The notes below the pieces were generated by a model that was given only the letters and a program-made list of their open reading frames with translations, had not been told where the DNA came from and searched no databases. From an uncultured cyanobacterium (GTDB lineage: Bacteria; Cyanobacteriota; Cyanobacteriia; PCC-9006; JAAUQQ01): 64,000 bases of DNA. A program made the position numbers and the translations under genes. Location of the stretch: assembly GCA_963718615.1 (NCBI GenBank), contig OY970368.1, positions 960,001 through 1,024,000 on the forward strand. The letters run 5' to 3'. This document shows, one piece after another, positions 44,315 to 57,205 of the stretch; position 1 is the stretch's first letter, and each line of letters opens with the position of its first letter.

Positions 44315-45340
44315 ATGGCTCCCGCAATTCTCATTGAGAAGCTTCAAAAATCCTACGGTTCGGTGCAGGCCGTCAAAGACGTCTCGCTCCAGGTGGAAGC
44401 GGGGGAGATTTTTGGACTATTGGGTCCTAACGGTGCGGGCAAAACAACGACGCTGCGCTGTCTCTGTACCTTGAGCACGCCCGACGCGGGTAAGCTGGAA
44501 GTCAGTGGGGTGTCGGTTGTGGCGCAGCCGAAGTTGGCGCGGCAGAAGCTGGGCTATGTGGCCCAGGAGGTGGCGCTGGATAAGGTTTTAACGGGGCGGG
44601 AACTACTGCGGCTTCAGGCGGCGCTGTATCACTTGCCGAAGCAACGGATTGGCGATCGCGTCCAACAAGTCATCGATCTCCTCGGCATTGGCGATTGGGC
44701 GGATCAAAAGACCGGCACCTACTCTGGCGGCATTCGTAAACGCCTAGACCTGGCGGCGGGATTGCTACACCAACCTAGCGTTCTGGTTTTGGATGAACCA
44801 ACGGTGGGTCTGGATATCGAGAGCCGCACGGTGATTTGGAATTTTTTACGCGGTCTAAAGGCCCAGGGGATTACGGTTTTGCTGACCAGCCACTATTTGG
44901 AGGAAGTGGATGCCCTGGCGGATCGGGTGGCGATTATTGACCGGGGGCAGGTAATTGCGGTAGGGACGCCGTCGGAGTTGAAGGATCGGGTGGGGGGCGA
45001 TCGCATCACGCTCCGCATTCGTGAATTCACCCCTGACGAAGAAGCCCACCAAGTCAAGCAGATGCTTGAGCAACTTCCCTTGGTGCAAGAGGTGATCCTT
45101 AATGCGGCCCAGGGCAATTCTTTAAACCTTGTGGTTGATCCCCAAGCAGATGCCTTAGCAACGGTGCAGCAAGCTTTGCGGGAGGCGGGGTTGCCGACGT
45201 TTGGGATAGCCCAGGCGCGACCTAGTTTGGATGATGTCTATTTGGCGGCGACGGGACGGACGTTGATGGATGCGGAATTGGCGGCGGCGGGGAGTCGGGA
45301 TTTGAAGAAGGAGAAGAAACAGGCGATGAAGGGTTTGTAG
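44315..45340 (+). CDS. ABC transporter ATP-binding protein (DrrA-like)
   Basis: GPNGAGKT, YSGGIRKR, LDEPTVGLD. Confidence 0.92.
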   Translation: MAPAILIEKLQKSYGSVQAVKDVSLQVEAGEIFGLLGPNGAGKTTTLRCLCTLSTPDAGKLEVSGVSVVAQPKLARQKLGYVAQEVALDKVLTGRELLRLQAALYHLPKQRIGDRVQQVIDLLGIGDWADQKTGTYSGGIRKRLDLAAGLLHQPSVLVLDEPTVGLDIESRTVIWNFLRGLKAQGITVLLTSHYLEEVDALADRVAIIDRGQVIAVGTPSELKDRVGGDRITLRIREFTPDEEAHQVKQMLEQLPLVQEVILNAAQGNSLNLVVDPQADALATVQQALREAGLPTFGIAQARPSLDDVYLAATGRTLMDAELAAAGSRDLKKEKKQAMKGL

Positions 45341-45406
45341 GGGCATGGGGCATGGGCATGGGGCAAGGGACATGGTGGTGGGGACATGGCATTGCCATAT
45401 CCCTAC
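45337..45406. repeat. REP-like palindrome plus ggggcat short tandem repeats
   Basis: ggggacatggcattgccatatccctac; a related copy lies at about 11900-11926. Confidence 0.6.
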
Positions 45407-45499
45407 TCTCGTCTTCTGTGAATTCCTGGAACAATACCCCGATGTACAAACGGCACAAGCTAGGACTGAGACCCAACTGACACAGTTCTTTCGGGGAGG

Positions 45500-45860
45500 A
45501 GCAAGGAAGCAGTTTGAACTTCAAGTGTTCCTGGAACAGGAGGATCAATATTTACAAGTTCACGACATACAACTTTAGGGATAATGACCTGATTATAGAG
45601 TTGAGGTAAAAGTTGTAAGTGATGAATTGCCGCCAGATTCGTCAGCATCGATGTATCACTGATAACGATTAAAGCCGTCCCAACTCCTGCAAGTTTTTCA
45701 AGTCTATTGCAAAATCTTCCACGTCGTAGGAGTAGAGAGGTATGTTTTGCTGCTTAAGGAGTTGACGAAAAGCATTCAGGGGCACTTCTGCTAGCTTACT
45801 AGCATAACCTATCGTCAGATAACTAGTTTGGAATAGATGTAGGGCAATGCAGATTAGGTC
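45500..45860 (-). pseudogene. Truncated UPF0175 antitoxin + DUF3368 PIN toxin remnants
   Basis: IALHLFQ...GYASKLAEV...YDVEDFAIDLKNL* followed by VISDTSMLTNLAAI...VIIPKVV. Confidence 0.75.
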
Positions 45861-46030
45861 TCTATCTTGTTGCTCGATTGAACTGCTTTAGGTTTTGAAT
45901 AAATCAAATACGAAGATGGCTCTGATAGCTCAGTTCGGCTGACAATCAAAACTGAGTATCAGGTGGTTGGGGCTGGCTTAAATTCGCTCAAACATTACTT
46001 TAGAGTTGTTTTTCACTTTCTCTATTGATC

Positions 46031-46059
46031 CCGTCCGACTCAGGACCTATGTTAGGTGT
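46031..46059 (-). other. attC left arm (R''/L'') of cassette C; right arm degenerate
   Basis: Minus strand ACACCTAAC-ataggt-cctgagtcggac, 38 nt after the stop; complementary to GTTAGGTGT at 47860-47868. Confidence 0.65.
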
Positions 46060-46096
46060 TTTCTTATGCATCCAGCTTGTTATAAAGACAATGCTA

Positions 46097-47779
46097 CTAT
46101 ACGGGGCTTAATTGCTTGCTAATTTTGTACATCTCATCATGATTTAGCTTTAAGAGAGGCATACGAATTAAACTCCCATTTAGAGAGATGCTTCCTTGTT
46201 CCCACTCTACTACTGATCTGTTGTAGATATCTATTAAAAGTCTATCTGTAACCGTCTTAACGTCTGCAAGATTCAAGTTTTCGGAGGATAGGATTCTATG
46301 TACGACTCCGTTAAGCAATTGAAGATTAAGCACAGTAATATCTTTTTTTAGCTTCCAAACTGAATGAGTGCCAAGACCAGCACGGCACAATAGTACACTT
46401 ACACATTGAACGTTCTCGACTCTTATTTCAAATATTTCCGATATTACAGAATCACGCTCATCTTGAGGTAAATCTTGAAAACGGTTAAGTTGCTCTATTC
46501 CCTCTTTTGAACGATTTTCAACAGCTTTTGTCATTCTTGCACCTTGTGGTGGAATAGCTGCTTTCGCTTGAATATGTACCACTGTATTAGCGCTTGATTG
46601 ATAGATGAGTAAATCAAATTCTCCCTTGCTCCAATTTTTATTAGAGACGATCCTTAAACCTGGTAGTCTTTCCCATATTTCTAAAGCTTGCTTTAAAAGT
46701 GTGGGTTCAAGATGCTGTGAAACAATATTGTTGAATTGAGTCGTATTGCATCTGTTAAGAACATAGAAAATGTTTCTTGTTGCCAACATTGATCGAAGAA
46801 TATATGGGCTAAATAAATAAGAATGCGAATAATCTATTAAAGGTGGGAAAAAACCTTCACCAGAATTTTCAAAATTCTGATTGACAACATCAATAGTGAA
46901 GAAATTTAATATATTTTCAATTGCAGAACTTTTAACGTTTGTTAAAGCCATTAATAACCTTATAAAAAAGCTTTTAGCATTAAAAACTGCAACCCATTCG
47001 TAAAATTCGTGAAATAGAGTTTCCTTTCTTGTTTCACTGCTTTCATTAAGCCAAAGAAATTCTAAAGCATTTGCAAGACCAATACTGTAGTCTGCATATG
47101 CGAATAGTGCAGCCCTGATCTTACAAAACTCTTCCCATGTTGTCCCAATAGATATTTGGAAAGCGTTTGGCTCTAAAATTGGTATTTCCTTAAAACTATT
47201 TAAACGATATTGAAATAGATCGGCTAATACTCTACACATCAAAGCCATATTAATATTAGGAAGTTGATCCGCTAGTTCAATAAATTCTTGCTTTAAATTA
47301 GGAGCTTCACCAACTAAGAACGTTAAGCTAAGTTCAGTTAAAAGAACATCGTACTCTTCAGCTCTTGAAAATTCTTCATTGGGATGTATAAGCTCAAACC
47401 CTTCCTCGATTTTTCTGACCTCATAGTAACCGCGCCGTACTTCAGGCATAAGTTCGCAAAAATGGGCATAGGATACTAGCTCTCGAAAATCTTTGACGAA
47501 CAGTGCAGTAGCTGAAAAAGCATCGATTGCGCTAACTCCTATTTGTGAAGTGCATTTTCTCAGCAAAGGGATTAAGTAAGAAAGTCTACTACTTAATGCT
47601 TCACCTTCTGCTTGATTCTTAGATATGTTGTGACCAAAGCGCTCACCCTGAATCAGAATGTCGATTACCACAAATAAGCTTGTTAAAACACTCCTAAGCG
47701 GTAACTGAAACATATCAGACTGAACAATTTTGTTGTCAATTTCACCTTCGAAAGAAAAAAGATCATCTCGATCGCTCAT
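46097..47779 (-). CDS. AT-rich cassette protein with a putative C-terminal PD-(D/E)XK nuclease
   Basis: 560 aa; GEFDLLIY...VHIQAK motif. Confidence 0.55.
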   Translation of the reverse strand: MSDRDDLFSFEGEIDNKIVQSDMFQLPLRSVLTSLFVVIDILIQGERFGHNISKNQAEGEALSSRLSYLIPLLRKCTSQIGVSAIDAFSATALFVKDFRELVSYAHFCELMPEVRRGYYEVRKIEEGFELIHPNEEFSRAEEYDVLLTELSLTFLVGEAPNLKQEFIELADQLPNINMALMCRVLADLFQYRLNSFKEIPILEPNAFQISIGTTWEEFCKIRAALFAYADYSIGLANALEFLWLNESSETRKETLFHEFYEWVAVFNAKSFFIRLLMALTNVKSSAIENILNFFTIDVVNQNFENSGEGFFPPLIDYSHSYLFSPYILRSMLATRNIFYVLNRCNTTQFNNIVSQHLEPTLLKQALEIWERLPGLRIVSNKNWSKGEFDLLIYQSSANTVVHIQAKAAIPPQGARMTKAVENRSKEGIEQLNRFQDLPQDERDSVISEIFEIRVENVQCVSVLLCRAGLGTHSVWKLKKDITVLNLQLLNGVVHRILSSENLNLADVKTVTDRLLIDIYNRSVVEWEQGSISLNGSLIRMPLLKLNHDEMYKISKQLSPV

Positions 47780-47937
47780 TACTCTTACCCGCTAAATATA
47801 TAGGCTAACCTAGTCTAATATAAAGGGAGCCACCAGAGGCTTGTTACAGTTCACAACTGACACCTAACGACCTCGTTAGACTGATTGGCAAGATAGCTGG
47901 CCCTTAATTTGTTCAACGCATCCTGGTAAATCATGGG

Positions 47938-48341
47938 GGTAGTGCCTTTAGCTGGGGGATGAGTATGGTGTGGCCATTAGAGAAAGAAAAAGCAAACTGG
48001 GTAAGACCCTTCTGTGCCAATTGCAATGACTCAAGAGCTGCTTCATTGTCCTAACTGTCTATCTGAAGATATCAGCCGTAACGGCTTCAACGATCGCGGT
48101 ACTCAAAGCTATAAATGTCGAGATTGCCGTCGCCGGTTTGTCCTGACTCCGAAATCCCTTCCCTTGAGCGATCTGCGGCAAAGGGTGTCGCGCTTGGTGC
48201 GAAAGGCGCTCTCGTTTTCAAAGAAACAAGAGAACCACGAGGCTGCGATCTGGAATTTCGTTCACCATTACAACCAGCCATTGCGCCTTAAGCAGGCACA
48301 TGCCGCTTCATTCTCTCCAGCACCCACATAATTGGACTACC
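47938..48341 (+). mobile_element. Internally deleted IS1-family element
   Basis: Ends ggtagt.../...actacc; InsA Zn finger (CPNC...YKCRDC) fused to the InsB tail (LRQRVSRLVRKALSFSK...HYN). Confidence 0.8.
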
Positions 48342-48727
48342 CTAAATTGTATGGGCCAATTCCTGAGTTAGATGGGTGGTTGAGGCGACGAATTCGGATG
48401 TGTTATTGGAAACAATGGCGCAGACCGAGGACTCGCATCAGTAACCTGTTGAAGTTGGGGACACCGAAGCAGCACGCTTTTTCTACTGGCTTGAGCCGGA
48501 AGGGATATTGGCGGTTGTCGCGGACGTTGGCCACGCAGACGGGTATGACAAATGAGTGGTTGGCACAACAGGGATTGCTTTCGATTCGTGACCTATGGAT
48601 GAAAGTCCAGGGCTACGAAGAGAAGCCTGTCAGTTTGTCTAGCAGTTAGGTTGAGAACCGCCCATTGCGGAGCCGCACGATGGGTGGTGTGGGAGGGGGG
48701 ATTCGTGAGGATTCTCCCTATCCCGAT
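48342..48727 (+). mobile_element. 3' remnant of a group IIC intron (maturase tail + DV/DVI)
   Basis: LDGWLRRRIRMCYWKQW maturase; DV gaaccgcc...gtggtgtgggagg; ends ctatcccgat. Confidence 0.9.
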
Positions 48728-48846
48728 TGGGCTGCTGGCAAGACACTCAAGTTAGCGGCAATGCCATAAACTCTGCTTTTCTAGTCGCAATGTTCTGGTG
48801 TTGTTTGTCAACACAAAAATGGAATCGTACTCTGCCGAAATTCCTC

Positions 48847-50427
48847 CTATAACCTGCACGCTTCTAAGCGAGAGAAAAGACTTGGCACTCCTCTAACCCA
48901 ACCTCCCGGTCGGGGTAAATGTCCTAACGGAGCCGATGAATCAAAGATCAAATCATAATACGGTATCCAAATACTTTTTAATCGCCATCCGACGCGGTCG
49001 CCAAACTTTTCATAAGTACTATCATCATAATTGTCATCAAGCTTGCCACCACATTCTAGATAAATTTGCTTCTGAATACTGAAACCAAATTTACCGCTAC
49101 TGTATTTCACCCACAATTCATCAAGGGTGCGGAGATCTAAACAGGGGAACTGTCTTATTTCTTCCTCCCTAACCCAGTCGCTTTCTCTCCGACCAATAAG
49201 CTTGAGTATGATCTTATAAGTTTCATAATCAGCTTCTTTCCATCTCCCAGCCTTTAACAAATCTCGGAGTAAAGTATAGTCCAAACCCCGCTCAGAACTA
49301 AGGTTATCGTGGGATGCTTCAACAGTCAAAGATGAATGTTGGGTGGAAGCAGACTGCTCAGCAACTACCTGTGCTTCAATTGCTGCAATATCTTCATCTC
49401 GTAAACCTAAATATTGCCGATAGTCTTTCAGATCCCTTAGAGATCCTTCACTTATAGGATTCTCCACCTGCATTACCTCAAGCAATGCCTCTTTATATTC
49501 TTGCAGTTTGCGTCGGTACTCTCGATGAGGTTGTAAAACCTCAACCTCAATTGCATGTGCCTCCGCTTCCGACAAGCCAAGTTGTTGTTTCAATACGTGC
49601 AAGACTCTACGAGCTACAGAGGATAATTCATCACGACTGGCAAAACGTTGTAATTCTTTGCGATATCTTAGTTTTGAATTGTCTACAGGTACTTTGGCTA
49701 GCAGAATCTTGTAACCTTCCGCAGCAGTGTAAAACATAGGAGTCATTGCTGGAGCAGCCGCTCTCACTTTGGCTTGAACGTACTCATGTAATTCATCAAC
49801 AGCAATAAAACCATCACTATCTAAATCGGCTGCTCCCGTTGCAATCCCCTCAACTAAATAACGGGTATAAAGTGACAGGTCAGATTCCTCCTGCCAAAAA
49901 GCATACTGGGTAGAGCTAGAGGAGGTTAGAATAGCACGTCCAACACCACCTAACTGTGCCCGGATATCGATATGGTCGTCGTCTCTGACAGGTAAAATCT
50001 TTACATCTCGACCAAATGTTCCACTAAAATCGCAATCTAAAATGACTACCTGTCTACGAGAACGACCATTACTCATCATCTCTTGAATGAATCTAGCTGA
50101 AACAGCAGTAGATTTTGCGAATCTATCCTTATCCTTTCGAGTGTTCCGAGTAGCTAAATAAATCTCTTCATTGTCGTCTTTAATTCCATGACCAGAGTAA
50201 TAGAATAATACCAAATCATTATTCTGGCTCTTAGAAAATAAATCATCTATGGCTTCTTCCATCTCTTGTCTACTTGGATTAGCTAGTAGAGAAGCCTGGT
50301 CAAATCCACCTACTTCGGGGTCTCGTAAAACGCGAGCCATTGCCTCGGCATCTACTCCTGCGCTTGGGAGTGGATTTAACCCCAGTTCATACTCACTCAC
50401 CCCTATCAATAGTGCAATTTTAGCCAT
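48847..50427 (-). CDS. Caspase (peptidase C14)-GUN4 fusion protein
   Basis: ALLIGVSEY, FYYSGHG, LDCDFSG; GUN4 DYTLLRDLLKAGRWKEAD...GKFGFSIQK. Confidence 0.88.
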   Translation of the reverse strand: MAKIALLIGVSEYELGLNPLPSAGVDAEAMARVLRDPEVGGFDQASLLANPSRQEMEEAIDDLFSKSQNNDLVLFYYSGHGIKDDNEEIYLATRNTRKDKDRFAKSTAVSARFIQEMMSNGRSRRQVVILDCDFSGTFGRDVKILPVRDDDHIDIRAQLGGVGRAILTSSSSTQYAFWQEESDLSLYTRYLVEGIATGAADLDSDGFIAVDELHEYVQAKVRAAAPAMTPMFYTAAEGYKILLAKVPVDNSKLRYRKELQRFASRDELSSVARRVLHVLKQQLGLSEAEAHAIEVEVLQPHREYRRKLQEYKEALLEVMQVENPISEGSLRDLKDYRQYLGLRDEDIAAIEAQVVAEQSASTQHSSLTVEASHDNLSSERGLDYTLLRDLLKAGRWKEADYETYKIILKLIGRRESDWVREEEIRQFPCLDLRTLDELWVKYSSGKFGFSIQKQIYLECGGKLDDNYDDSTYEKFGDRVGWRLKSIWIPYYDLIFDSSAPLGHLPRPGGWVRGVPSLFSRLEACRL

Positions 50428-52333
50428 TGTCTATCTCATGAGTAACAAATGCTAGTAAACTGTGAATCTCATCATTATCAGACTCTATATCTAATGCCTT
50501 TCTGAGTTGCTCCTTTGCTAGTTCAAACTCTTTTTGCAGTCTCAAATCTCGACCGTACCCTAACAGTGCTTGAATATAGTTTTCTTTAGTTCGTACTGAA
50601 TCAATCTGAAATCCCCTTGCATAAAGTGCTGACGCTTTACCAAAATCCTCAATCTCTAAGCACGCTGCTGCCATATTAAGTAGAGCACTAAAATGATTGG
50701 GGTTTAAATCTAGTACCTGACTGTATAGATCAAGCGTAGTTGTCATCTCACCCTTCTGATGCAACTCCATTGCTCCTTGATAAATACGATTAGCCTCTGG
50801 CTCCAACTTCTCCAACTCTCTTATTTCCTGGCGGAGTGGATAACGTTTGATTAACCAACGGCGGACAAGTTCAATTTTTACTTTATATGCGGGTGCTTTG
50901 GAATCTTTTATAAAATCTAGGAAATTCCATTCAACCAGTCGTTTTTCAGCATCAACTAATGGTTTAGTCCGAACAACTCCATATCCCTCCAACAACTCTA
51001 GTGGTAGAACTAATTTAGATTCTACTCTGGGTAGCCCAAGTGTTAGAACCTGTCCCACACGAACGTGCTGTAATTCTGTACTGACTACAACTGCCCCTAG
51101 TCTTGGATCATAGGAAGCGATCCAGGCTGTAGAGGGTAACTCACGCATCAGATAGCTATATAACCAGGTTGGAGCACGACCCGTAATGACTATTCCAATG
51201 TTCGTATCAATCTCTTCAGGTAGCTCTAGATTTACGAGATCCTGCGGCTCGATAACCCCACTTTCAGAGAGAAGTTCTATGGTTAACCACTGATATCTTA
51301 AACCTTCATAATCTTGCTGTTCACTTAATTGAAAGCGAACTGAGGCATTAGATGTTTGACTAATGTTACTTTGAATATCTAAATCACTGACTTCTTTGTT
51401 GGCTTTCTTTTGAGCTTCTGCTACAGCCGAAAAGACAACCCGTTCAGGAATGGGCAACCCATCTCGAAACCATGCTAAACCCGCTTCACCAATCTCAATT
51501 GCTCTATCTACAATTCTTTCTACATTTTCACAAATAATTTTCCAGCTTTGTTGCTCTCGTGCGTATCCAAAAAGCGTAAAACATATTAATTGTGTAAAGT
51601 AAGGATGTCCTGCTGAGAGGTTAAGAATTGCTTGTATAGCTGCTGAATCGTACTCTAATATTTCTTTAGCAGGTTCAACAATTAAACGCTTCGCACTCGT
51701 TTCATCAAGCAAACCAATCTCTTGACTAGGCGCTTCTTTGAATAAACTGAGTAACTTTGGCATGTCATCCAGTCGTCGTCCCACAACCGGAATGAGAAAA
51801 AGTTGTTTCTGTCGATGAATGATTGACTGTAAGTAGGGAAAAAAGTGTTCAACTGCTGTCTCTGGGTTATAGCTACTTAAGACATCAAACTCATCCATTA
51901 ACAAGACTAAGTTTCTGCCTCGCAATGCTTCATAAACTTGAGACAGAAAAATGCGAGAGAAAGCACTTGAATCTTCTTTCAGTTCCGTTGCTGAAGGTAA
52001 TGTTATCTCTTCTAATGGCAGTTCAAGTTGATCGACAATTTCCATAGCAAGATAGTGCAACACATCACTAAGAGGTGTTTTGCTTCTATCTTGAAGATCA
52101 AAGAGTACAAAAGAAAACTCGTTCAATCCGACACACCTTGGAATTTGAGAGAGTACAGAAGATTTGCCAATACGCCGTTGACCATGCAGCAAAATAACTT
52201 TTGCACCTGACTTCAGATTATCCTTAACGAATTGAAATAAATTTTCTCGCCCAAAAAACAGATCTGGCTTGTCGATCGGACTGCCAATGTCATAAGGATT
52301 TCTCCGAGATTGTGGAGACATCATAATCATCAA
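50420..52333 (-). CDS. STAND-like ATPase with inserted Csx3/Crn3-like domain and C-terminal TPRs
   Basis: NPY...FFGRE, GQRRIGKSS, LLMDEFD, GHPY; GIVITGRAPTWLY...YDPRLGAVVV; TPR helices. Confidence 0.8.
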   Translation of the reverse strand: MMIMMSPQSRRNPYDIGSPIDKPDLFFGRENLFQFVKDNLKSGAKVILLHGQRRIGKSSVLSQIPRCVGLNEFSFVLFDLQDRSKTPLSDVLHYLAMEIVDQLELPLEEITLPSATELKEDSSAFSRIFLSQVYEALRGRNLVLLMDEFDVLSSYNPETAVEHFFPYLQSIIHRQKQLFLIPVVGRRLDDMPKLLSLFKEAPSQEIGLLDETSAKRLIVEPAKEILEYDSAAIQAILNLSAGHPYFTQLICFTLFGYAREQQSWKIICENVERIVDRAIEIGEAGLAWFRDGLPIPERVVFSAVAEAQKKANKEVSDLDIQSNISQTSNASVRFQLSEQQDYEGLRYQWLTIELLSESGVIEPQDLVNLELPEEIDTNIGIVITGRAPTWLYSYLMRELPSTAWIASYDPRLGAVVVSTELQHVRVGQVLTLGLPRVESKLVLPLELLEGYGVVRTKPLVDAEKRLVEWNFLDFIKDSKAPAYKVKIELVRRWLIKRYPLRQEIRELEKLEPEANRIYQGAMELHQKGEMTTTLDLYSQVLDLNPNHFSALLNMAAACLEIEDFGKASALYARGFQIDSVRTKENYIQALLGYGRDLRLQKEFELAKEQLRKALDIESDNDEIHSLLAFVTHEIDNG

Positions 52334-52408
52334 TCCTGAGCCATGAGATCGAAGAGAAGACAGTAAAACAACTATAAGTAGAACACGTACTCTATACTCA
52401 ACAAGCAG

Positions 52409-53707
52409 CTAACCTGACACAAACCCTTTGGGAATGGCACTAACTAGCTTGCTAACCCATTCAATAACAGAGGGCACTTCGTCCTTATGCTGCCACAAAT
52501 ATCGAATCCCAGTTTTAACTTGCTCTGCTTGCTTGCTGCTCATTAGGTTGAGAAAAACCTTTTGGCGTTGTTGAAGTTCCTCCTCGTTGCTATTCTCGAT
52601 TTCTTTAATTACCCACCACTCCATCATTGACGAGGCAAATGCATAATTTGGTCTGCCCTGTTGCATAGTTCGGATAATTACTCCCCGTTGTTCCAAATCT
52701 GTCAATTCACGCTCTCGTTGACTAAAGACGATGCTGATGTCGCCCAAGTCATAATTCTTACGCTGTAAACGACCTTTTAGATTAGATAGAGCAATCAACA
52801 TTAGAAGTGTCTGTTCCTCCTGATTTGACATTTCCCAGGTTTGTTGGAAAAATTGTTCAGTTGCACTCAGGAAGTCTCGCGTGAATGCTTCAGGATCGGG
52901 CATCTGCCCAGTATGGAGTTTGTCATATAAAAGATAACCAGCATGTTGAATCAGTGCTGGATGTCCATCAGTAATTTCTCGAATCCCCTCCCGCAGTGCC
53001 GTTGTCATTGGCATACAACCTAATAAAGTATCAATTTCACTATCAGTAAATGGTTTGAGAGGTTGAAATAGGTAGTGATTATACCACGGAGACTTATCTG
53101 GCGAGAGCTTGGGTCCAAGTTCGTTGAGCCGACGAAATGAAGTCACGATCATTGAGAGACAACCTTTACTCTGAACTGCCAGGTTACGAGTCTCGCTCAG
53201 GAATATCTCTATGCTGCTCTCCTTATACTGATCATGCGGACGGAAAGCAGCATCATAGTTATCTAGCAGCAGCAGTAGAAACTTATTTTGTTTTCCTATT
53301 TGCTTCAAGAACTGACGTAAGTCATCCTTTGTTGCTTCAGCCTTCCTAAGGGATTGGTCGATCCCAGTTTGTAAAAGGTCATCATCAACAAGTTCGTCCT
53401 TGATCAAGCTTAGGATCTCTCGCCAGAAGGTAGCTGGTAGAAAGGGCATTATGCCCAAGCAGTCCAGGTAGATAATGATAGATTCAGAATGTTCACATCC
53501 ATAGTGTTGCCAAACTTGAGGAGAAATCAGCAGTTCCAAAAAAGATGACTTACCCATCCCCGCTCCACCCCAGATGGCTAAACTGCTACGACTAGCGATT
53601 CGATCAAAAGCAATACCAATTTCAGATGCCCATCCGACAAAGCTTTCTGAAGAAACTAACTTTCCAGGAGAAAAGGGATTTTTTGACATGGCATTCGCTG
53701 AGTCCAA
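52409..53707 (-). CDS. STAND-like P-loop NTPase
   Basis: NPF, GGAGMGKSS, LLLLDNYD, GHPALIQ. Confidence 0.8.
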   Translation of the reverse strand: MDSANAMSKNPFSPGKLVSSESFVGWASEIGIAFDRIASRSSLAIWGGAGMGKSSFLELLISPQVWQHYGCEHSESIIIYLDCLGIMPFLPATFWREILSLIKDELVDDDLLQTGIDQSLRKAEATKDDLRQFLKQIGKQNKFLLLLLDNYDAAFRPHDQYKESSIEIFLSETRNLAVQSKGCLSMIVTSFRRLNELGPKLSPDKSPWYNHYLFQPLKPFTDSEIDTLLGCMPMTTALREGIREITDGHPALIQHAGYLLYDKLHTGQMPDPEAFTRDFLSATEQFFQQTWEMSNQEEQTLLMLIALSNLKGRLQRKNYDLGDISIVFSQRERELTDLEQRGVIIRTMQQGRPNYAFASSMMEWWVIKEIENSNEEELQQRQKVFLNLMSSKQAEQVKTGIRYLWQHKDEVPSVIEWVSKLVSAIPKGFVSG

Positions 53708-53900
53708 AGGTCTTGATTAGGAGTTTTCCTTTGACTAGCTTAGCCCCACTGATACTTTTTGAGTACTACTCCTACAAATAACGAGAAGCAGCCCAACGTC
53801 GTAGCTGAGCCGCACCCGTCAATCTGCCAATACTGGCGACAACGTCGTCAGGACGGCTCGCTGAGATGTGAATGCTGTCGTGTCGGCTCCAGCGCAGTGT

Positions 53901-54370
53901 GTACGCCCAGCATGGGCGTGAGCTAATGGGGTGAAAGTCCCCTGTGGGAGAACCAGCCATCCAAATGCTCGTATTAATTGGAGCCGAGAGATGGACAACC
54001 ACTAGCCTAAGGCAAGGGCGTCTTCGCGAGAAGGGGTCGGTCGGAAACCAGACTTTTGGATTGCGTCTGCTTTCGGGTAAGTCGCTTTTCTAGGCTCTGT
54101 TTCACCGTGGGAACTCCCTATTAGCGCCAGTGTCACTTGCAATGAGTTTCTGATTGCGCCCAGCTCCTAGCTTCGATCTCCCGAATTCCGAGTCGGGTCA
54201 TCGTGGGCAGATCAGGAGTCACATCCGAGTTTGATGGAAGGGACTTTCACCCTCATCAAGAGGACAGTTCAGCTCTTGAGAGTGCTTCATGTTTGGAAGC
54301 CAAGCTGGCAGAGTTATTTATGGGCTTGCACCGTTATTCATCTGCAACGAATCGCACCCCCTATCCCGAT
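53901..54370 (+). mobile_element. Internally deleted group IIC intron
   Basis: 5' gtacgcccagcatgggcgtg...gggtgaaagtccc; 3' ctatcccgat. Confidence 0.85.
54040..54357 (-). mobile_element. 5' fragment of a second (IIB-like) group II intron nested antisense
   Basis: Minus strand starts GTGCGATTCGTT and contains gggtgaaagtccc. Confidence 0.7.
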
Positions 54371-54406
54371 TAGGTGTTGCTTAGATGTCACTTATCTAAG
54401 AACACT

Positions 54407-55234
54407 TTAAACATTTGCTTGCTGTAAAAGCTTTAAAATAGAAGTTGAACGGGTCATATAGGAAAGCCCAGTATGATGAAACATTGGTGGCACAGATGTT
54501 TCATCCCAAAAATGACCAGACATGATTCCCGCAAGCAATGCAGGTCGCCAAGTCGGATCGTCTATATCCCCGCCAGGACGAAATCCTCTCGCTGGCAAAA
54601 AGACCGGGCTACCACTTGATCCAGAAAAAGACAATCCTGATACAAGAATTATATCGTCTGTCTTTATTTGGTCGTTAGTGAATGATATCTGTGGCAGAGA
54701 AGCTACTGTACATTGACGGGCTACAGGAAGTTTCCATTTTTCATCCCACCAGTGCCGGCCATTCTTCCCTGGAAAACCGATAAAGAAGGATGTTTCCATC
54801 GGTCCAATAATTAGACTATTGGCAAAGTTTTTCTCATCAATAAGGTTTTCAAACTTAAGAATTTCTCTATTTGGATCGAATGGGGTTTCTTCATGGAATA
54901 CAGGTTCAACAAGAATAGAGCAGTCAGAAGATGGGGAAGAGAATAAACAACTTTCTATATTTGCCACATCAAAGAAATCTGTATTCTCTGCAGGCTGGTT
55001 TGATTCATAATATCGTAACTCTATAGAAATCCTATCGAGCTTTAATCCTGGCTTGTCGGGGAATCTTATAGATGGATCAACATTATGTTTGTTGGTGACA
55101 AAAATATTCTTTCCAGTCTGGGAAATCATCCAAAATCCAGTACCACAACCAGATTTTTCGTTTCCTATATCATCCGTAAAATTTACTTTGATGCGGTGGA
55201 TCATCCAAAAAATCTTTGGGTTAAGACCAAGCAT
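54407..55234 (-). CDS. Trypsin-like serine protease (cassette A)
   Basis: GTGF, VTNKH, SDCSIL, SGSSGSPVF catalytic triad motifs. Confidence 0.85.
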   Translation of the reverse strand: MLGLNPKIFWMIHRIKVNFTDDIGNEKSGCGTGFWMISQTGKNIFVTNKHNVDPSIRFPDKPGLKLDRISIELRYYESNQPAENTDFFDVANIESCLFSSPSSDCSILVEPVFHEETPFDPNREILKFENLIDEKNFANSLIIGPMETSFFIGFPGKNGRHWWDEKWKLPVARQCTVASLPQISFTNDQIKTDDIILVSGLSFSGSSGSPVFLPARGFRPGGDIDDPTWRPALLAGIMSGHFWDETSVPPMFHHTGLSYMTRSTSILKLLQQANV

Positions 55235-55298
55235 ATGGCTGTTCTCAAACTTATTTATCTAAAAAACTAGGTTAGATCTAATACTTGTTGAACTGACT

Positions 55299-55545
55299 AC
55301 ACCTAACAATTTATTCTCATGCACGATGCCTGATAACTCCCTCCTCTCGCTATTCTCAAGTATCAGCGCCGTATAATCCCCAGCCATGACCTATTACCCA
55401 TGCAATTATGCTGGATAACATCCCTGGTTAGGTATTATCAGGCAACGCCGCATGATAACAACCCATTTCCAGGCATTATCCCCGCACAGCCGCCGGATAA
55501 CATCCCTGAGCAGGTATTATCAGGCATGTCTCAGTATAATCATCC
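55299..55545 (-). other. attI-like site with about 41-bp periodic repeats
   Basis: Minus strand ...gaataaatt-GTTAGGT; repeats GGATAACATCCCTG...GGTATTATCAGGCA at 55413 and 55495. Confidence 0.55.
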
Positions 55546-55717
55546 CCTTTGAGTCAGCGTAGAAAATTACAAAATCTTCACCCCCGAGTCAGGGAATCCA
55601 AAGGCTTCAGCCTCGCTTTCCATGCAAACCCAGCCGCCCCAGACACTGTCCCAAAACTGACTCTAGCCAGGGATGCTTCTGTGACATTACACCCATGACG
55701 ACTCCCCGATTCATTGG

Positions 55718-57205
55718 CTACGCCCCCAAAACCGCCTCACCCTGCCGATACAGCTCCCGCGCATAATCCGTCCATTGTCCCTGGCCCCAGTAGCGAAAAC
55801 AGCTAGTTTCTAACAACAGCACATACAAAAGCGCCGCTTGATAATCCGAACGCTGCGTCATCGCAGGATCAGCCGCCACGAGGGCGTCGTATTTTTGATG
55901 AAACTGAATGCTCAAGCGCTGCATCGGTTCAAGGACGTTTTCATAACCCTGGACCCAGCTCAGATCATTCGTCCAGGATGCCCCGTCGAGGTGAAATTGG
56001 GGGTCTGTGTCGCGCAGGTGCTGGATGGCGATCGCCACCCCCTCCGGCGTCACAGAGTCTGTCCCCAGGTGCTGCCAAATCCTATGCTGATGCACCGCCT
56101 GACAGACAGGATAATCCTCAGGCTTAGCGCCTAGGGCTTCAATCAACTCCAAATATTCCGTCCCATTCATCGCCACCGTTCCCGCAGCATTGCCCCCCCC
56201 ATCCCGAATTTCGTGATACACCCGGAAGAGATCACGGGGATACTCGTTCATCATCACACCGCCGTTTTCACCATCCGCAATCTGAGACACCAGCGACGGA
56301 ACTTCAACCTCGCCTAACCGCTGACGGCCCCAGCCCTTGGCTTCAAAATAGGGCTGCATCTGAGCCACTAGCTTGGTGTCCGATCCCTGGGTTTTAATTA
56401 ACGCCGTGATGCTGATACTTTCTCCTTGAGCGTTGCGAGCCACTAAACGGTTGGGCAAATACTTGTCAGATTGATGCAAGCCCGAGCCATCTAGCCGCTC
56501 AACGGAATGCTCTTGCACCAACAACCAGCGATAGCCACAGTCCTTCAGGGCTTTGATATATTCATACAAAACATCGGGATGATTGGGCAAATGCATCTCC
56601 GGCGGCGAAAAGCCCTTGACCCGAGCCAGGGCTGCGGTGCCAAAGGTTGCCGCAAACTGGTGCTGCCAAGCCTGAATATGAAGCTTCAGATCCGGCACTG
56701 GCGTTGAAGGAACAACCGCATGGCTCCACATCGTCCCCAACCATTCCACCTGGAGCTGATAGCGCTGATCGCAGGCAATTCGCCGCAGCTTGTCGAGAAT
56801 GTCTTGCCGCTGCATCTGTTCCAACGCCCAAAGCAAATTGCCCGAATAGTCGAGCATAATGCGGGGATTACAGCCCTGGTCAATCAGTGCGGGGATAAAG
56901 TCCCCCATGCGTCCATAGCAATCTGCAAAGACCCCGGCGTTGTGATTGTCGCCATCGTGGGGATGCTCGAACATGTGTTGCAAATTGGAAATCAACGCAC
57001 CTTCAGGACCCGCCGGAATCGTCGGCTGATGCATATGCAGCGCGCAAGCGAAGCCAGACTGGAGGCGATCGCCCTCTAAATTCGTCCTCCCCAGAAACAC
57101 TGGCTCCGTTCCCTGAACCCAATCCCGCAACTCCGCCTCTCGGCCCGCAATGGGGGGCAAGGATTGACACAGGGCCGGCAACTGAGATGTAGTTTCAGCA
57201 ATCAT
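55718..57205 (-). CDS. Glycoside hydrolase family 57 protein
   Basis: ALHMHQP, FSPPEMHLP, IADGENGG, ETSCFRYWG. Confidence 0.88.
   Translation of the reverse strand: MIAETTSQLPALCQSLPPIAGREAELRDWVQGTEPVFLGRTNLEGDRLQSGFACALHMHQPTIPAGPEGALISNLQHMFEHPHDGDNHNAGVFADCYGRMGDFIPALIDQGCNPRIMLDYSGNLLWALEQMQRQDILDKLRRIACDQRYQLQVEWLGTMWSHAVVPSTPVPDLKLHIQAWQHQFAATFGTAALARVKGFSPPEMHLPNHPDVLYEYIKALKDCGYRWLLVQEHSVERLDGSGLHQSDKYLPNRLVARNAQGESISITALIKTQGSDTKLVAQMQPYFEAKGWGRQRLGEVEVPSLVSQIADGENGGVMMNEYPRDLFRVYHEIRDGGGNAAGTVAMNGTEYLELIEALGAKPEDYPVCQAVHQHRIWQHLGTDSVTPEGVAIAIQHLRDTDPQFHLDGASWTNDLSWVQGYENVLEPMQRLSIQFHQKYDALVAADPAMTQRSDYQAALLYVLLLETSCFRYWGQGQWTDYARELYRQGEAVLGA

Follow-up and report, generated by a model that had tools for sequence, protein, structure and literature searches.

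An operon in a filamentous cyanobacterium that combines an NTPase pair, a histidine-less Csx3 domain and a caspase-GUN4 protein lacking the canonical cysteine

Csx3 domains fused to P-loop ATPases, as Csx3-AAA or AAA-Csx3 proteins, are described as type III CRISPR accessory proteins (clusters 35 and 67), mainly of cyanobacteria, and the ATPase has been proposed to be under allosteric control by cyclic oligoadenylate (cOA; Shah et al., 2018, PMC6546367). Adjacent NTPase genes are known from a mobile two-gene operon encoding two novel, paralogous STAND NTPases (nSTAND2), which are expected to assemble into a hetero-oligomer (Kaur et al., 2021, PMC8195603). The EACC1-caspase modules are another two-gene system (Kaur et al., 2020, PMC7159879; Evans et al., 2025, bioRxiv 10.1101/2025.11.14.688446), and their experimental study assigned the role of sensor to the caspase-fused domain and that of pore-forming killer to EACC1 (Evans et al., 2025). 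The caspase-GUN4 architecture itself was counted in 29 of 473 orthocaspases (PMC8283722). The operon described here brings together a Csx3 domain, a pair of NTPases and a caspase-GUN4 protein. It is found in a window of 64,000 nucleotides, the whole stretch of DNA that was analysed, which corresponds to positions 960001-1024000 of the complete, single-contig genome (6.1 Mb) of a filamentous, multicellular cyanobacterium. We tentatively read the operon as a trans-acting ATPase module of type III CRISPR that would sense cyclic tetra-adenylate (cA4) and act through a pseudo-caspase-GUN4 protein, a reading that stays somewhat short of probable.

The operon comprises three co-directional open reading frames (ORFs) on the minus strand, NTP1, NTP2 and caspase-GUN4, of 432, 637 and 526 amino acids (aa). 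The ORF scan recovered them at the coordinates and lengths given in the first-pass annotation of this DNA:

52409-53707, minus strand: NTP1, a 432-aa P-loop NTPase without an added sensor domain (ORF scan, weak Pfam matches)
50420-52333, minus strand: NTP2, an NTPase with lid and helical domain, Csx3, winged helix and tetratricopeptide repeats (TPR) (ORF scan, Pfam, AlphaFold2)
51035-51343, minus strand: Csx3 domain of NTP2, inserted between helical domain and winged helix (Pfam, TIGR, fold)
50423-51004, minus strand: winged helix and TPR arm of NTP2 (TPR Pfam matches, AlphaFold2)
48847-50427, minus strand: caspase-GUN4, a 526-aa orthocaspase of the EACC1-associated type with helical linker and GUN4 domain

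NTP2 is 637 aa long when read from a TTG start, and the public gene call (P0001) begins three codons later, which gives 634 aa. The ATG of caspase-GUN4 and the stop of NTP2 overlap, as had been noted before, and the overlap measures 8 nt (ATGGCTAA). The caspase domain occupies residues 1-232 (~49732-50427) and the GUN4 domain residues 378-506 (~48910-49296). At E<=0.01, the only PADLOC matches of the cassette are to models of Csx3, to one of a caspase and, by way of the GUN4 domain, to PD-T4-6. PADLOC assigns no system name to the operon, and the first-pass view that the combination is not a named system therefore stands.

The Csx3 domain of NTP2 is recognised by PF09620 (Cas_csx3; residues 358-430, E 9e-26, 90 bits against a cut-off of 21) and by TIGR02579 (84.3 bits against 55.4), and it resembles AfCsx3 in sequence (E 2e-12) as well as in fold (3wzg, template modelling score TMt 0.78, 33% identity). 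In AfCsx3, cA4 is held mainly by the face carrying D69 (S44, G45, R46, I49 and R71), while the opposite face carries H57, H60 and H80, which are strictly invariant; the ligand lies between the face with D69 and that with H60 in stacked dimers, and since the active site forms between these dimers, H60A and D69A each abolish cleavage (Athukoralage et al., 2020, PMC7371418). In the 634-aa numbering of NTP2, the D69 face is represented by T381 (S44), G382 (G45), R383 (R46), D406 (D69) and R408 (R71), and the three histidines, needed for cleavage in AfCsx3, are replaced by R394 (H57), P397 (H60) and E417 (H80). The same pattern is seen in all five NTPase-Csx3-TPR proteins, which have R or Q and P at the positions of H57 and H60, invariant G45 and D69, and at R71 an arginine (four) or a lysine (one). 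All six CRISPR-linked Csx3-AAA relatives that were aligned keep both histidines (L-x-H-E-x-H). With its binding face kept and its histidine face lost, the insert probably binds cA4 and does not cleave it. A cyclic-oligonucleotide input through Csx3, as proposed in the first-pass annotation, is thus supported at the level of motifs.

The nearest other Csx3 domains (~54% identity) belong to Csx3-AAA proteins of ~320 aa that are encoded directly upstream of Cas10 in type III loci, and the insert of NTP2 appears to derive from such proteins. The window protein shares with Csx3-AAA and AAA-Csx3 the fusion of Csx3 to a P-loop ATPase. Those proteins are short, cas-adjacent and keep His57 and His60, whereas the window Csx3 has lost its histidine face, lies far from cas genes and sits inside another, nSTAND1/AAA_35-like ATPase with a TPR arm and a partner NTPase. 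The PADLOC profile C3a67, 'AAA-Csx3', matches NTP2 through the Csx3 part only. Such an insertion is very rare: PF09620 is found in only five of the best 120 NTP2 homologs listed (999 of 8000 candidates scored passed E<=1e-3), and a profile search of 1.84 billion representatives returned 479 Csx3 proteins, among which only two clusters (P0002 and P0004) have the NTPase-Csx3-TPR architecture. P0004 and P0005 (830 and 843 aa) are NTPase-Csx3-TPR-CHAT fusions in which, as the alignment reads, G or S stands at the expected Cys position of CHAT, and P0121 (547 aa) has the order caspase(SGYG/DCCHG)-Csx3-Csx3-AAA. Taking P0004, P0005 and P0121 as independent cases, Csx3 and caspase-fold domains appear to be recurrently linked. 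Another rare Csx3 fusion, P0225, is a Csx3-AAA-TPR-WD40 protein of 906 aa.

NTP1 and the N-terminal domain of NTP2 are paralogs (hhalign probability 99.2%, E 7e-20, 276 columns). All Pfam matches of NTP1, to AAA_22, AAA_16, NACHT and nSTAND1 (18.0 bits), are below cut-off, and a sequence search found no relative of it in the PDB. Its Walker A motif is GAGMGKS (K53) and its Walker B motif LLLLDN (D149, N150). In its family the G, K and S of Walker A and the Asp of Walker B (D149) are invariant in 28 of 28 sequences, and the residue after this Asp is D in 23 and N in five, including NTP1 of the window. NTP2 passes the nSTAND1 model (PF20703; 31.1 bits against a cut-off of 27.1) and stays below that of nSTAND2 (22.7 bits against 24), to which NTP1 has no match; of the 42 members of its family, 40-42 retain its Walker A (GQRRIGKS) and Walker B (DE) motifs. 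The AlphaFold2 model of NTP2 (mean pLDDT 84.9, pTM 0.73) comprises NTPase (1-205), lid (208-258), helical (265-314), Csx3 (328-430), winged-helix (441-494) and TPR (497-633) domains in the 634-aa numbering. A P-loop domain with Walker A and B motifs, followed by a helical domain and a winged helix, is the order that defines STAND proteins, here with Csx3 placed before the winged helix. The top Foldseek matches are ORC1/Cdc6, RuvB/RuvBL, RFC and proteasomal Rpt AAA+ proteins (E ~1e-6, TMt 0.4-0.6). Because these nearest folds are AAA+ and there is no STAND among the 50 matches listed, AAA+/STAND-like is the most fitting name for the module.

An NTP1-type gene is followed by an NTP2-type gene on the same strand in 20 of 20 loci found through NTP1 and in six of six found through NTP2. 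Fusions in the order NTP2-TPR-NTP1 also occur (for example at L011, L050, L053 and L063), as do alternating arrays in some loci. The paired NTPases of the first-pass annotation are hence confirmed and are moreover a conserved trait of the family, and a comparable operon of two STAND genes has already been published (Kaur et al., 2021). In that nSTAND2 system, which shares the two adjacent paralogous NTPase genes, one partner is described as inactive, with eroded NTP motifs, and carries a GT4 or HEPN effector. Both proteins of the window pair instead keep Walker A, their family adds Csx3/TPR or solute-binding modules, and the score is above cut-off for nSTAND1 and below it for nSTAND2. Homologs of NTP1 occur in 19 of 401 cyanobacterial genomes sampled, the host genome included, and in 15 of 155 genera; in seven other genomes of the host family (completeness 62-93%) no intact NTP1 was found, and one of them has a broken fragment.

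The winged helix and TPR arm is matched by tblastn in all 26 related loci, partially in some, at 30-50% identity. It had been proposed as a variable sensor of phage, and such family-wide conservation, together with a ratio of nonsynonymous to synonymous substitution (dN/dS) of 0.158, does not agree with that role. All ten long NTP2-type proteins that were scanned end in solute-binding domains (Peripla_BP_6/ANF_receptor). They are putative ligand-gated ATPases of an unstudied family in filamentous cyanobacteria, and small-molecule sensing appears to be a habit of the NTP2 family. At L046, L048, L049, L051, L052, L055, L057 and L060, NTP2-type-TPR proteins carry Peripla_BP_6/ANF_receptor domains, and often two such tandem paralogs follow one NTP1.

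The third protein matches Peptidase_C14 (E 1e-20) and GUN4 (PF05419; E 6e-40, 137 bits) and passes NF047832, the model of the EACC1-associated caspase type (162.4 bits against a cut-off of 140). Its AlphaFold2 model (mean pLDDT 81.2) was matched by Foldseek with the MALT1 paracaspase (E 1e-10), metacaspases and caspases. The GUN4 domain fits 4xkc with a root-mean-square deviation of 1.8 A over 160 columns (Foldseek) and matches 1z3x by sequence (E 2e-21), and as modelled it appears to be a well-conserved core domain with the fold of porphyrin-bound GUN4. Where the usual caspase motif reads ILDCCFSG, the window protein has ILDC(132)D(133)FSG; His80 is kept. The second Cys of the D-C/S-C motif is present in 117 of the best 120 homologs, the exceptions being the window protein, with Asp at this canonical catalytic position, and the L008 protein (from the orthologous locus described below) and P0278, both with Ser. 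These three Cys-less proteins form an exclusive clade with a support of 1.0. The catalytic position was assigned by motif alignment and not by residue-level superposition; the assignment rests on that alignment because a sequence search of solved structures gave only marginal metacaspase matches for the caspase domain, covering the His region. A proteolytic effector, the role given to the caspase in the first-pass annotation, is not what these residues suggest.

The caspase-GUN4 architecture as such is common, with 2395 homologs at E<=1e-20 among 8000 candidates scored, and it is shared with EACC1-caspase systems. In those systems the caspase is partnered by EACC1, whereas the gene immediately upstream of the window caspase is NTP2, with the overlapping start; the cassette has no EACC1 gene, its caspase has lost the catalytic Cys, and its partner is an NTPase pair. 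The genome holds two caspase-GUN4 paralogs, at 48% identity, of 640 and 676 aa, with the normal ILDCCFSG motif:

5.050-5.052 Mb (L016, 6898-9308): caspase-GUN4 paralog
5.885-5.887 Mb (L017, 6683-9201): caspase-GUN4 paralog

Each of them is preceded by a near-identical 143-aa ORF that has a hydrophobic segment rich in small residues. These ORFs have no Pfam or NCBIfam match; in the protein atlas the 143-aa ORF gave a score of 0.91, with PF19953 on 29% of the members of the third-ranked cluster and 22 of 30 matches in that set. On this protein-atlas lead, the two paralog loci are probably EACC1-caspase modules. One lineage would then have lost EACC1 and the catalytic Cys and gained NTPase partners, apparently still under purifying selection.

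The same three genes are found in the same order, at 61-83% identity and between unrelated flanks, at locus L008 of another genome. The homologous block is:

48825-53825, minus strand: the three genes with ~118 bp upstream and ~20 bp downstream, shared with L008 (tblastx)

For a third NTPase-Csx3-TPR protein (P0003) and for the caspase-GUN4 that matches best (P0278), the records each give a contig of 326,273 bp. Together with the L008 triplet, this bears out the earlier proposal that the three genes behave as one unit. The GC content is low in both genomes: the L008 block has 38-40% against 44-52% around it, and in the window it is 35-46% at ~46-56 kb against 51-60% over most of the remainder. 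This low-GC stretch is flanked by an ABC-transporter ATPase gene and a conserved 495-aa gene, and it is strewn with mobile debris: an IS1-like element with an internal deletion, the remnant of a group II intron maturase, and dispersed repeats of three families. Insertion sequence (IS) debris adjoins the cassette in both the host and the L008 genome, and we conclude that the operon was horizontally acquired. At L008 (10663-11881), the cassette is directly followed by a DDE transposase of the ISAzo13 type (DDE_Tnp_ISAZ013), split over two frames.

Between the window and L008, the frames are intact and dN/dS lies at 0.07-0.24 in every gene and domain (Csx3 insert 0.21, caspase 0.155, GUN4 0.10), which indicates that the genes are still functional; these are NG86 values from this single pair, with dS of 0.7-1.9, partly saturated. 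The cassette is rare, having been seen in three genomes. A metagenome scan with a single stretch of Csx3 yielded 552 pattern matches and no relative among them, and in a second scan (alignment A4) none of 24 loci had homologs of NTP1, NTP2 or caspase-GUN4. A sequencing-run search listed no RNA run, and four metagenome DNA runs of one study contain 0.08-0.21 of the sampled words.

A source of cA4 could be provided by the host genome itself, which has two Cmr2/Cas10 genes with YAGGDDF motifs, Cmr3/RAMPs, Cas1 and CRISPR arrays. The two type III-B (Cmr) loci, at 2.184-2.194 Mb (L014) and 5.225-5.233 Mb (L015), encode short Cas10 proteins of 564 and 537 aa in which GGDD is kept. One of the loci has a long array of 37-nt repeats and the other has Cas1 and an array, with WYL regulators nearby; no CARF-type effector was found among the scanned neighbours of either. 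The domain in NTP2 is the sole Csx3 domain of the host genome. The L008 genome likewise has Cas10-palm2 matches.

In the mechanism that we favour, NTP1 and NTP2 would form a two-subunit, AAA+/STAND-like NTPase switch, a hetero-oligomer suggested by adjacency, fusion and paralogy. cA4 made by the two Cmr complexes of the host would reach NTP2 in trans and be bound, without cleavage, by the Csx3 insert at the hinge between helical domain and winged helix. As Csx3 dimers sandwich cA4, binding would draw NTP2 subunits together, and this stacking could be coupled to the ATP-dependent assembly of NTP2 with NTP1. The assembly may then act through the translationally coupled, Cys-less caspase-GUN4, serving as scaffold or adaptor and not as protease, which is the weakest step; the output would run through the tetrapyrrole-binding GUN4 domain or through engagement of the active caspase-GUN4 paralogs of the genome, and the infected cell would finally arrest its growth or die. 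A complex prediction for NTP2 residues 441-634 with caspase residues 1-265 gave a score of 0.00 and a mark of 0.32, with the controls not folded, and it speaks neither for binding nor against it. A more elaborate version can be imagined in which the dead Csx3 makes cA4 the glue that assembles an NLR-like, hetero-oligomeric ATPase platform, and a cFLIP-like pseudo-caspase-GUN4 recruits and activates the active caspase-GUN4 paralogs beside the EACC1-like pore-former genes, or a GUN4-bound porphyrin serves as a light-driven killer; we regard it as a long shot.

Several observations weigh against the cA4-sensing mechanism, which is built on comparisons of sequence, motif and fold, with binding, cleavage, assembly and phenotype all inferred. 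The cassette is at least 1.2 Mb from either type III locus (window at 0.96-1.02 Mb, Cas10 at 2.18 and 5.23 Mb). In the L008 genome, too, it is unlinked to the cas loci, and a genomic association with CRISPR is thus missing. Filamentous cyanobacteria commonly have Cas10, and its presence in both genomes is therefore weak evidence. Four models of other cOA effectors (Csx1/Csm6 HEPN, APE2256, SAVED) found none in the host, and since only one of the four matched in the control genomes, NTP2 is not established as the sole cOA receptor of the genome. On the binding face, I49 of AfCsx3 corresponds to Thr in the window, and the L008 ortholog has Pro in place of R46, which contacts cA4. As the three Cys-less caspases form one clade, they represent one evolutionary event and not three; all three keep Cys132, which adjoins the lost Cys and might serve as nucleophile in its place. 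With a dead caspase the operon would be left without an evident effector, and because the caspase-fused domain is the sensor in EACC1 modules, GUN4 may be a second input and not an output.

Other explanations read the same features differently. The operon could encode a metabolic or stress signal-transduction ATPase outside immunity, which would receive a nucleotide by way of Csx3 and a tetrapyrrole by way of GUN4 and would regulate chlorophyll or haem metabolism or the response to stress. The solute-binding Peripla_BP_6 domains of all ten long NTP2-type relatives, the conserved GUN4 core (137 bits, with the fold of porphyrin-bound GUN4), the disabling of both the Csx3 histidine face and the caspase Cys, and the want of a PADLOC system name would all suit such a regulator, and fusions of EACC1 modules to DnaK point to functions other than phage defence (Evans et al., 2025, 10.1101/2025.11.14.688446). 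The patchy distribution, the low GC and the IS debris beside the cassette in both genomes are not what would be expected of it, nor is the state of NTP1 in the seven other genomes of the host family. The nearest kin of the Csx3 domain are moreover CRISPR-linked, a neighbouring gene matches the PADLOC candidate family PDC-S45, and the nSTAND1 and EACC1-type caspase families were described from conflict systems. On balance we consider a non-immune regulator unlikely. The operon may alternatively have been a Csx3/caspase defence operon that is now decaying and without present function, as three degenerate catalytic sites (H57/H60 of Csx3, the caspase Cys and the DN of the NTP1 Walker B) and the surrounding IS debris would allow. 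This was already disfavoured by the intact frames and the low dN/dS against L008, read with the limits given above for that single pair, and the same substitutions are common to orthologs at 57-78% identity, which leaves a relic highly improbable.

The first-pass annotation had favoured an assembly like Avs and the bacterial NLR-like STANDs, in which a phage protein would be detected by the TPR arm, the NTPases would form oligomers and the caspase would cut its targets. The grammar of NTPase, repeat arm and caspase-fold module is indeed present, NTP2 exceeds the nSTAND1 cut-off, and with Cys132 and His80 remaining a shifted dyad is possible in principle. The likeness to Avs nevertheless does not extend further: no PADLOC Avs model was matched (E<=0.01), the nearest folds of the NTPase are of the ORC/Cdc6, RuvB and RFC type, the repeat arm is family-conserved and under purifying selection, the input is a nucleotide-binding Csx3 domain, the protease is apparently inactive, and there are two NTPase subunits. 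The canonical nucleophile is Asp or Ser in the three clade members against Cys in 117 of 120 homologs, and the difference between D and S at this position argues against a new shared nucleophile there. An Avs-like system is accordingly quite unlikely. Sequestration of cA4 by the dead Csx3 on a mobile element, as an off-switch of the host or as an anti-CRISPR of the element, would fit the kept binding face, the lost cleavage face and the mobile context, and ring nucleases and cOA-binding proteins are known to regulate type III signalling (PMC7371418). A mere sponge or damper would have no need of a conserved, motif-intact NTPase pair, of a TPR arm or of a coupled caspase-GUN4, yet all these are under purifying selection, and we find it very unlikely.

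The boundaries of the cassette bear on how it moved. The first-pass annotation had described the unit as an integron cassette bounded by a matching pair of "R boxes". No repeat flanks the unit other than CCCTATCCCGATT, which stands at 48716 and 54359 in direct orientation, with an exact 13-mer and 15 of 16 nt when extended. About 7e7 position pairs in 12 kb, multiplied by 49/4^16, give ~0.8 expected pairs of this kind, so that the repeat is about what chance would give. The 6.1-Mb genome has seven copies of the 13-mer, all of them placed at the end that the repeat copies share, and the two boxes terminate two different repeat families. The features concerned are:

47934-48342, plus strand: IS1-like remnant with internal deletion (InsA zinc ribbon and DDE_Tnp_IS1 fragment, Pfam)
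48716-48731, plus strand: downstream R box, CCCTATCCCGATTGGG, the 3' end of a group II intron-like remnant (48332-48730)
54359-54374, plus strand: upstream R box, CCCTATCCCGATTAGG, the 3' end of a dispersed repeat (~54022-54374)

The IS1-like remnant has nine further copies in the genome, at 97-99% identity, all split at the same point. The intron-like remnant gives the only GIIM maturase match of the genome (24.6 bits). Its final 74 nt form a pair of hairpins (z = -4.3 against shuffles), and a 2-nt bulge interrupts the second one close to the 3' end. The upstream repeat family has seven places in the genome, with truncated or variable 5' ends and a common 3' end, and its fold does not rise above shuffles (z = +0.3). 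A group II intron identity was considered for both boxes and is supported only for the downstream one, by the GIIM remnant and the D5/D6-like fold. Rfam gave no match at gathering score in the whole window, and none at E<=1 in 45300-55800; a four-way DNA alignment of the flanks was uninformative. The block shared with L008 falls inside both boxes, and L008 lacks the motif. No integrase or recombinase was found among the nine flanking ORFs scanned (38.8-63.7 kb), an attC model and an IntI scan elsewhere not having been run. The boxes are thus ends of dispersed repeats outside the conserved block, no attC-type ends were recognised, and we rejected both the bounding of the unit by a matching pair and its identity as an integron/attC cassette. 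Since L008 shares only 48825-53825, has unrelated flanks and lacks the motif, the unit has moved and the boxes are not its ends. Nine loci of relatives around the 495-aa flank gene have no cassette genes, and no ABC ATPase/PALP neighbour within 1.5 kb apart from one ABC match of 33% identity; with no matching neighbours at these loci, the insertion site is not definable.

Two further genes lie near the cassette. Upstream, past the repeat, a 275-aa trypsin-like protein (54407-55234, minus strand; Trypsin_2, E 0.007) has a match to PDC-S45, a candidate defence family of PADLOC (E 1e-15), and this protein is absent beside the L008 cassette. At 46097-47779 (minus strand) is a 560-aa ORF with a GC content of 35-39%, unique in the genome and without Pfam, NCBIfam or PADLOC match, whose C-terminal part has, by eye only, a D...Q-x-K stretch recalling PD-(D/E)xK nucleases. 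The three repeat families at the edges of the island, at 45852-46056, 54022-54374 and 55302-55642, which have no Rfam match, recur together at no fewer than six other genome places (~0.293, 2.244, 3.844-3.859, 3.907-3.909, 4.646-4.674 and 4.714-4.721 Mb), sometimes with the same IS1-like element and maturase fragment, and they may mark other variable islands.

The components of the operon are each known in kind, namely Csx3-ATPase fusions, paired novel STANDs, EACC1-type caspase-GUN4 proteins and pseudo-orthocaspases. Among the closest known systems is Crn3/Csx3 (AfCsx3), with which the insert shares the fold and the residues G45, R46, D69 and R71 and from which it differs in the three histidines; the binding of cA4 between stacked dimers (PMC7371418) makes such a domain a natural trigger of oligomerisation. 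Type III CRISPR signalling is also linked to a caspase-fold protein in the TPR-CHAT/Csx29 Craspase and in the SAVED-CHAT cascade, and P0004 and P0005 likewise end in TPR-CHAT. The proteases of those systems are described as active and as bound to the effector complex or sensing through SAVED, whereas the window sensor is a Csx3 domain in an ATPase, and the caspase or CHAT modules of the window protein and its relatives lack the Cys. The triplet was not found in PADLOC or in the literature text searched, a search outside which figures, source data and supplements lay. The section on VMAP-system effectors in Kaur et al. (2020, PMC7159879) mentions a Csx3 combination. What appears to be new is the combination of a His-less Csx3 in one subunit of a conserved NTPase pair with a coupled Cys-less caspase-GUN4, with no cas genes nearby and no EACC1.

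The operon looks like a new way to read a CRISPR alarm signal. To our knowledge, every known type III cOA receptor consists of a CARF or SAVED domain in direct fusion with an effector enzyme. As the system is rare, its general importance is limited and its value is mechanistic. The NTP1/NTP2 pair is defined here as a conserved unit, and the solute-binding sensors it usually carries suggest ligand-gated ATPase switches. The lineage-specific loss of the caspase Cys and of the EACC1 partner would represent a prokaryotic pseudo-caspase adaptor. If the degenerate Csx3 is a pure cA4 sensor in the hinge of a switch, ring-nuclease folds would be recyclable as receptors, and CRISPR signalling could feed an assembly step like that of NLRs or the apoptosome. 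If the dead Csx3 does act as glue together with a pseudo-caspase, a multicellular cyanobacterium would have its type III CRISPR connected to a death pathway of the caspase/apoptosome style.

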